A stretch of DNA of 28,938 nt from Escherichia coli (GTDB taxonomy: Bacteria > Pseudomonadota > Gammaproteobacteria > Enterobacterales > Enterobacteriaceae). The notes below the pieces were generated by a model. That model was not told the DNA's origin. It was given only the letters and a program-made list of their open reading frames with translations, and made no database searches. The DNA is taken from the NCBI RefSeq assembly GCF_003334315.1, contig NZ_QOWR01000059.1. One strand, given 5' to 3'. Below, piece by piece: positions 6,976 to 7,133 of this stretch (positions are counted from its first letter, which is position 1; each line of letters opens with the position of its first letter). A program made the position numbers and the translations under genes.

Positions 6976-7133
6976 GCCGGATGCGGCGTAAACGCCTTAT
7001 CCGGCCTACCGATCCGGTACCCATTGTAGGCCTGATAAGATGCGTCAAGCATCGCATCAGGCATTGTGCACCAATTGCCGGATGCGGCACCGGTTGTAGG
7101 CCTGATAAGACGCGTCAAGCGTCGCATCAGGCA
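6976..7133. repeat. BIME cluster of four REP (repetitive extragenic palindromic) units
   Basis: GCCGGATGCGGCGTAAACGCCTTATCCGGCCTAC; GTAGGCCTGATAAGATGCGTCAAGCATCGCATCAGGCA; TGCCGGATGCGGCAC; GTAGGCCTGATAAGACGCGTCAAGCGTCGCATCAGGCA, in alternating orientation between purK and ybcF. Confidence 0.85.

Follow-up and report, generated by a model that had tools for sequence, protein, structure and literature searches.

The stretch of Escherichia coli DNA analysed here (28,938 nt, hereafter the window) carries purK and ybcF, the latter a carbamate kinase gene, as convergent neighbors separated by a 194-bp spacer (6960-7153) that contains an array of REPs. The positions of all features are collected in Table 1. 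The ybcF transcript converges with that of purK and enters the array from the opposite side. Two overlapping mechanical open reading frames, 6894-7136 (-) and 6963-7250 (+), were rejected, as no annotated gene lies there in any record examined. The K-12 RefSeq record lists no repeat feature at the array, and we found no literature specific to it.

The window aligns without gaps to E. coli K-12 MG1655 across 28,658 bases, of which 229 are mismatched (99.2% identity). The K-12 counterpart lies at about 529.6-558.3 kb in the opposite orientation, such that the K-12 coordinate of window position p is 558486 - p and 6976-7133 becomes 551353-551510. Every base of the spacer is the same in MG1655 and CP53, and by its sequence the flagged stretch is the resident, well-known E. 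coli REP array of the purK-ybcF spacer in its K-12 allele, an already known element. In the megablast comparison, the two ends of the window (1-204 and 28863-28938) fail to align to MG1655, against 99.2% identity for the intervening 28.6 kb; the source strain is therefore near K-12 yet not K-12, despite the identical REP spacer.

Table 1. Features of the purK-ybcF locus by window position, with predicted RNA folds of single units on each strand (kcal/mol; z)
Feature	Positions	Strand	Length	Sequence	Fold, + strand	Fold, - strand	Remarks
purK coding sequence	5892-6959	+					NCBIfam NF004678, 673 bits; annotated purK in K-12 and CP53
purK stop codon	6957-6959	+		TAA			purK transcript enters array from upstream
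Complete Y-type REP	6975-7009	+	35 nt	TGCCGGATGCGGCGTAAACGCCTTATCCGGCCTAC	-21.3; -4.8	-20.9; -4.0	Y pattern, 0 mismatches; hairpin 6976-7005, then CTAC at 7006-7009
Tail-to-tail Y/Z2 linker	7010-7025		16 nt	CGATCCGGTACCCATT			without IHF consensus
First complete Z2-type REP	7026-7062	-	37 nt	GTAGGCCTGATAAGATGCGTCAAGCATCGCATCAGGC	-20.4; -4.8	-19.9; -5.7	inverted relative to Y; Z2 pattern, 0 mismatches; foot GTAG at 7026-7029 (+ strand reading)
Head-to-head linker	7063-7074		12 nt	ATTGTGCACCAA			
Truncated Y REP (stub), 5' arm only	7075-7088	+	14 nt	TTGCCGGATGCGGC	-11.5; -0.8 (stub region)	-11.9; -1.5 (stub region)	exact copy of 6974-6987
Remnant of tail-to-tail linker	7089-7095		7 nt	ACCGGTT			
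Second complete Z2-type REP	7096-7132	-	37 nt	GTAGGCCTGATAAGACGCGTCAAGCGTCGCATCAGGC	-22.0; -5.8	-22.4; -6.1	Z2 pattern, 0 mismatches; direct-repeat alignment D1; foot GTAG at 7096-7099
ybcF coding sequence	7154-8047	-					NCBIfam NF006926, 619 bits; annotated ybcF in K-12 and CP53

The identity of the units was addressed with a 34-nt Y pattern and a 37-nt Z2 pattern, using 100 shuffles as controls. The Y pattern matches once, at 6976-7009 (+), and the Z2 pattern twice, at 7026-7062 and 7096-7132 (-), each time with 0 mismatches and with no match in any shuffle. Chance palindromes were rejected on the strength of these exact consensus matches. An independent local-alignment scan placed Y, Z2 and Z2 above threshold and nothing else. 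The intact units are imperfect palindromes that form a two-part stem with an internal loop, and each carries the conserved GTAG foot (CTAC on the other strand). These features agree with published descriptions of E. coli REPs, in which y, z1 and z2 units measure 35, 29 and 37 nt and each has a GTAG foot and a stem mismatch (PMC8266576; the GTAG and stem-mismatch rules also in PMC3333891). A first-pass annotation made from the letters alone had placed REP units at 6976-7133, in alternating orientation, as a BIME between convergent purK and ybcF; its coordinates prove exact, its proposed consensus alignment succeeds far beyond chance, and the alternation of Y on the + strand with Z2 on the - strand, the BIME arrangement and the convergent flanks are all borne out.

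The repeat family is dispersed through the species. A 591-bp spacer query matches a median of at least 27 places per genome and finds matches in 5426 of 5426 complete E. coli genomes, and the stretch spanning Y tail, linker and Z2 tail is found in similar form at a median of 2 sites in each E. coli genome. In the window, 7 copies of the REP head motif GCCKGATGCG were counted where 0.23 would be expected. One near-perfect hairpin elsewhere in the window, ACCGGATGCGAAAACTCGCATCCGGCAA at 2456-2489 in the ybcI-cysS spacer, contains the REP head motif GCCGGATGCG but falls short of a complete REP and probably represents a terminator-like stem.

Inspection of the unit order, Y (+), inverted Z2 (-), 14-nt Y stub (+), inverted Z2 (-), reveals three complete REPs and one stub rather than the four units first counted. 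The tail motif TTATCMGGCCTAC is present in only three copies in the spacer, so that the stub is a head without a tail. It has neither a 3' arm nor a CTAC/GTAG end, and it fell below threshold in the local-alignment scan. The direct repeats within the array indicate how the stub may have arisen. The Y heads (D2) are spaced 101 bp apart and the Z2 units (D1) 70 bp apart, and therefore 31 bp are absent from the second Y-Z2 unit. A 31-bp deletion appears to have taken the loop, the 3' arm, the CTAC and most of the linker from the second Y. The deleted piece is flanked by the near-repeats GATGCGGC and GATCCGGT (GATGCGG / GATCCGG), a microhomology that points to a slippage-type event. A plain 70-bp tandem duplication was rejected as the source of the second Z2: the 14-nt stub reproduces a Y head exactly, the flanks of the 70-bp register do not match, and the 31-bp deletion fits the 101- and 70-bp spacings. 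Among the 5426 genomes, a 49-nt junction across the stub occurs in 1969 (about 36%), at one place per genome. Since the junction is found once per genome throughout these 1969 genomes, it fits one inherited deletion with a single origin.

BIME-1 combines y and z1 with a long L linker, often with an IHF site, and BIME-2 joins y and z2 by short linkers in tandem copies (PMC3333891, PMC1187871, PMC2817692). By composition, the array is of BIME-2 type and not of the IHF-binding type. As in BIME-2 (Gilson, Bachellier, Hofnung; Ton-Hoang 2012, PMC3333891), 35-nt Y and 37-nt Z2 units alternate in orientation across linkers of 16 and 12 nt, the array is tandem and extragenic at gene 3' ends, and copy number at the locus varies between strains (2, 3 + stub, 4 or 10 REPs) on a Y-Z2 period of ~100 bp. 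Unlike a typical BIME-2, the K-12 allele has one Y cut to a 14-nt stub, and a strict catalogue might call it atypical; the likeness concerns units and linker length. With BIME-1 or RIB/RIP elements the array shares an inverted REP pair at the 3' end of a transcription unit. This identity was nevertheless rejected, as both inverted units are 37-nt Z2 and the array has no 29-nt Z1, no L linker and no IHF consensus. Matches to the IHF consensus WATCARNNNNTTR are absent from the spacer (6960-7153) and number three in the whole window, at 181, 334 and 5572, no more than chance. The IHF binding proposed in the first-pass annotation is thus not borne out here: the long L linker, to which such binding is tied, is a BIME-1 feature (PMC3333891, PMC2817692). 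A further likeness is to the REPINs of Pseudomonas and other bacteria, inverted REP doublets regarded as non-autonomous and thought to be mobilised by a single-copy REP-associated tyrosine transposase, or RAYT (PMC2817692, PMC8049555). The REP sequence family differs, however, and in E. coli the arrays take the form of tandem multimers, not of isolated doublets.

A Z1 REP does occur elsewhere in the window, in the glxK-allE spacer (15232-15399), where a 29-nt Z1 at 15303-15331 is followed by an L-like linker (15303-15366 in total). Two Rfam matches flank this Z1 REP, STnc480 at 15232-15298 (-; 87.6 bits) and ES036 at 15324-15366 (-; 38.1 bits, just above threshold). Because the ES036 match overlaps the REP tail and the apparent BIME-1 L-type linker, this 'sRNA' family may be just a BIME-1 fragment.

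We next turn to RNA. The spacer folds at -92.2 kcal/mol (z -5.55) on the + strand and -91.6 kcal/mol (z -5.59) on the - strand, and three REP hairpins are present in both the minimum-energy and the centroid structures of either strand. In the RNA fold check suggested in the first-pass annotation, the three intact units, folded alone, reach z values of about -4 to -6, and the stub region folds no better than shuffled sequence (Table 1). Two mutually pairing positions distinguish the Z2 copies (ATGC...GCAT vs ACGC...GCGT; T-A to C-G), a compensatory difference that preserves the stem. Scans of 6700-7400 returned 0 terminator-like sites and no promoter-like site. Stable G+C-rich hairpins at two convergent gene ends might be read as an intrinsic (Rho-independent) terminator that serves purK and ybcF in both directions, a reading that is barely credible given that no T run follows any hairpin on either strand. 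On the purK-sense strand, the segment immediately downstream of the array (7150-7300) is C-rich and G-poor (GC skew -0.33 to -0.37) and is a possible Rho loading region under the model of Peters and of Dar and Sorek (PMC6061677).

Taken as a whole, these observations make it highly probable that the locus is a resident, K-12-allele BIME-2-type array; its hairpins would protect mRNA 3' ends, its origin would lie in RAYT activity and recombination, and its DNA would serve as a gyrase site. On the basis of published REP work, the array would have arisen, and would be resized, as a non-autonomous element handled by TnpA-REP (the RAYT), which in vitro both cleaves BIMEs and recombines them (PMC3333891); units could also slip or recombine unequally with one another, changing the array's size. 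Transcription of purEK (+) or of the operon whose last gene is ybcF (-) would end diffusely downstream, probably in a Rho-dependent manner. Exonucleases acting 3' to 5' would then trim back until blocked by the REP hairpins, setting stable 3' ends for both convergent mRNAs. Such protection of Rho-dependent transcripts at their 3' ends by REP hairpins is experimentally known (PMC6061677 and the REP-stabiliser papers cited there), and by analogy the likeliest effect of the array is 3'-end protection of both convergent transcripts. The eLife 3'-end data set lists no 3' end for purK or ybcF. Stabilisation of upstream mRNA, as the first-pass annotation had it, is in keeping with this model and plausible from the predicted folds, with three stable hairpins per strand and no intrinsic terminator. 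At the DNA level, such a Y/Z2 array would be a preferred gyrase site, suiting a zone of convergent transcription. High-affinity gyrase binding and cleavage of BIME-2 is attributed to Espeli and Boccard (1997) as cited in PMC2817692, and gyrase binding here is plausible in that it fits the BIME-2 composition.

Two more specific roles were weighed against 3'-end protection. In the first, which follows Liang, Rudd and Deutscher (2015), terminating ribosomes would stall at the stop-proximal Y REP and less PurK would be made. According to the summary of Liang et al. 2015 in PMC12306157, translation is down-regulated by REPs closer than 16 nt to a stop codon; the Y hairpin does begin near the purK stop. 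The gap from stop codon to hairpin stem is nonetheless 16 nt (6960-6975), a borderline value just outside the <16-nt limit as that summary gives it; other alleles leave 17 to 18 nt, and 21 nt separate the second Z2 from the ybcF stop codon. We consider this role highly improbable. In the second, RNA transcribed from the array would resemble REP325 naRNA4 and, as a nucleoid-associated RNA, bridge cruciform DNA with HU. No Rfam family matches the spacer at its gathering threshold. The sole family with a low E-value here is naRNA4 (RF02564), at 43.9, 42.1 and 31.8 bits, and naRNA4 is itself a Y-linker-Z2 unit of which two such hairpins are needed for activity (PMC4550694). The two elements thus share the same Y-linker-Z2 build and a weak covariance-model similarity. 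All three scores nevertheless fall below the gathering score of 59.5 and are simply shared REP sequence, REP325 consists of six 77-bp units with another constant linker (PMC4550694), and the array is absent in some strains. A naRNA4-like role is therefore extremely unlikely.

To compare the locus across strains, 150 bp of each flank were joined as a query against 5,426 complete genomes, and 60 genomes evenly spaced down the ranking were sampled. The K-12 order of Y, Z2, Y stub and Z2 is found in spacers of 194 or 193 bp (18 of 60 genomes) and of 204 bp (4 of 60). Spacers of 124-138 bp, present in 23 genomes, hold a two-REP Y-Z2 array, as do alleles of this size in BL21(DE3) and O157:H7, and the 124-bp allele of NCTC86 resembles the K-12 allele minus the 70-bp Z2-to-Z2 repeat. 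Longer spacers of 232 or 233 bp contain four REPs as Y-Z2-Y-Z2 (3/60), and those of 532 or 533 bp contain ten REPs as five Y-Z2 units with a 100-bp period (8/60). At the short end, the 119-bp spacer (2/60) has one Y and an unrelated palindrome, the 152-bp spacer (1/60) has no REP, and one genome has a spacer rearranged by an IS1397 insertion (strain SK0189). REP number at the locus hence spans 0 to 10 in steps of roughly one 100-bp Y-Z2 unit. The comparison of REP counts across strains suggested at first pass was productive, yielding 0, 1, 2, 3 + stub, 4 or 10 REPs. The accompanying suggestion that unit number could differ from reference strains fails for K-12 MG1655, whose spacer is identical, but holds for many further lineages of E. 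coli. BIME-2 loci are documented to vary in length in this way (PMC1187871, PMC3333891).

The alleles also differ at their edges and in what replaces the REPs. The right edge of the array (7134-7153) is CAAATGTCTAATGCCTACGA in the K-12 type and TGGTGCACCGATTGCCGGATGCTCTCATCA in other lineages (loci L003 and L004), the latter including another partial Y head right beside the ybcF stop codon; the 204-bp allele joins the K-12 stub junction to a TGGTGCACCGATTGCCGGATGCTCTCATCA-type edge. In E. coli LR-28 (locus L008, 300-418; 119 bp), one Y REP precedes an unrelated palindrome, TCCGACCTGCGGAAGTGGTGATATTTCCAGGTCGGATAA, that is joined to the end portion of a Z2. The REP-free spacer of E. coli JMK_KBN3987 (locus L009, 300-451; 152 bp) instead carries a different G/C-rich palindrome, CCCCCTCACCCTAACCCTCTCCCCACAGGGGCGAGGGGAC, which we take to resemble the boxC repeat family.

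Insertions accompany these changes in copy number. In SK0189 (NZ_AP046539.1; locus L015, 2651-4200), IS1397 sits in the loop of the purK-proximal Y REP, TTGCCGGATGCGGCGTGA|TGAACTGCACC, and at its far end it borders half a Z2 and a Y REP beside gsk. ybcF and its neighbors are missing from that position and appear to have been deleted or moved. At least two further genomes (NZ_OZ547043.1 and NZ_CP047600.1) have IS1397 elsewhere within the purK-ybcF array, in keeping with the specific insertion of IS1397 into REPs (PMC1525189). The early description of the array as a hotspot for IS insertion and recombination thus applies to this locus in other strains, where IS1397 and copy-number change are both seen, but not to the window itself.

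This diversity bears directly on whether the array does anything for its host. A serious rival to a functional array is that it is purely selfish or neutral repeat DNA, kept by TnpA-REP and recombination in a permissive spacer and of no real consequence for purK, ybcF or the chromosome. Strains with 0, 1, 2, 3.5, 4 or 10 REPs keep intact flanking genes, the allele of JMK_KBN3987 swaps the array for an unrelated G/C-rich palindrome, IS1397 interrupts the array in some genomes, and convergent gene ends are the least constrained kind of spacer. Set against this, a compensatory change keeps the Z2 hairpin, nearly all alleles keep at least one stable hairpin after each gene, no allele examined has an intrinsic terminator instead (the terminator scan covering the K-12-type allele), and the protection of 3' ends by REP hairpins has experimental backing (PMC6061677). 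We regard the purely neutral account as possible yet doubtful, and it is compatible with the view that the hairpins protect 3' ends. Some natural alleles have a single REP or lack REPs altogether (the 119-bp and 152-bp spacers), so that the array is dispensable and any host function or benefit is modest. At the opposite extreme, variation across the lineage-tied series (0, 1, 2, 3 + stub, 4 and 10 REPs) could serve for tuning and not be neutral, setting purEK/ybcF mRNA stability or gyrase recruitment at the point of convergence, with the K-12 stub allele as a distinct functional state; this we consider quite improbable.

For the BIME-2-type array described here, the consequences beyond correct annotation are small, as this is a textbook REP/BIME array with the same sequence as the K-12 reference. 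Two corrections to its annotation follow. The array comprises three REPs and a stub rather than four REPs, and it is a Y/Z2 (gyrase-type) array rather than one of the IHF-binding type. The spacer is also of use for its variants, where 0 to 10 REPs and IS1397 insertions provide a handy natural allele series for the effects of REP copy number on two convergent transcripts.
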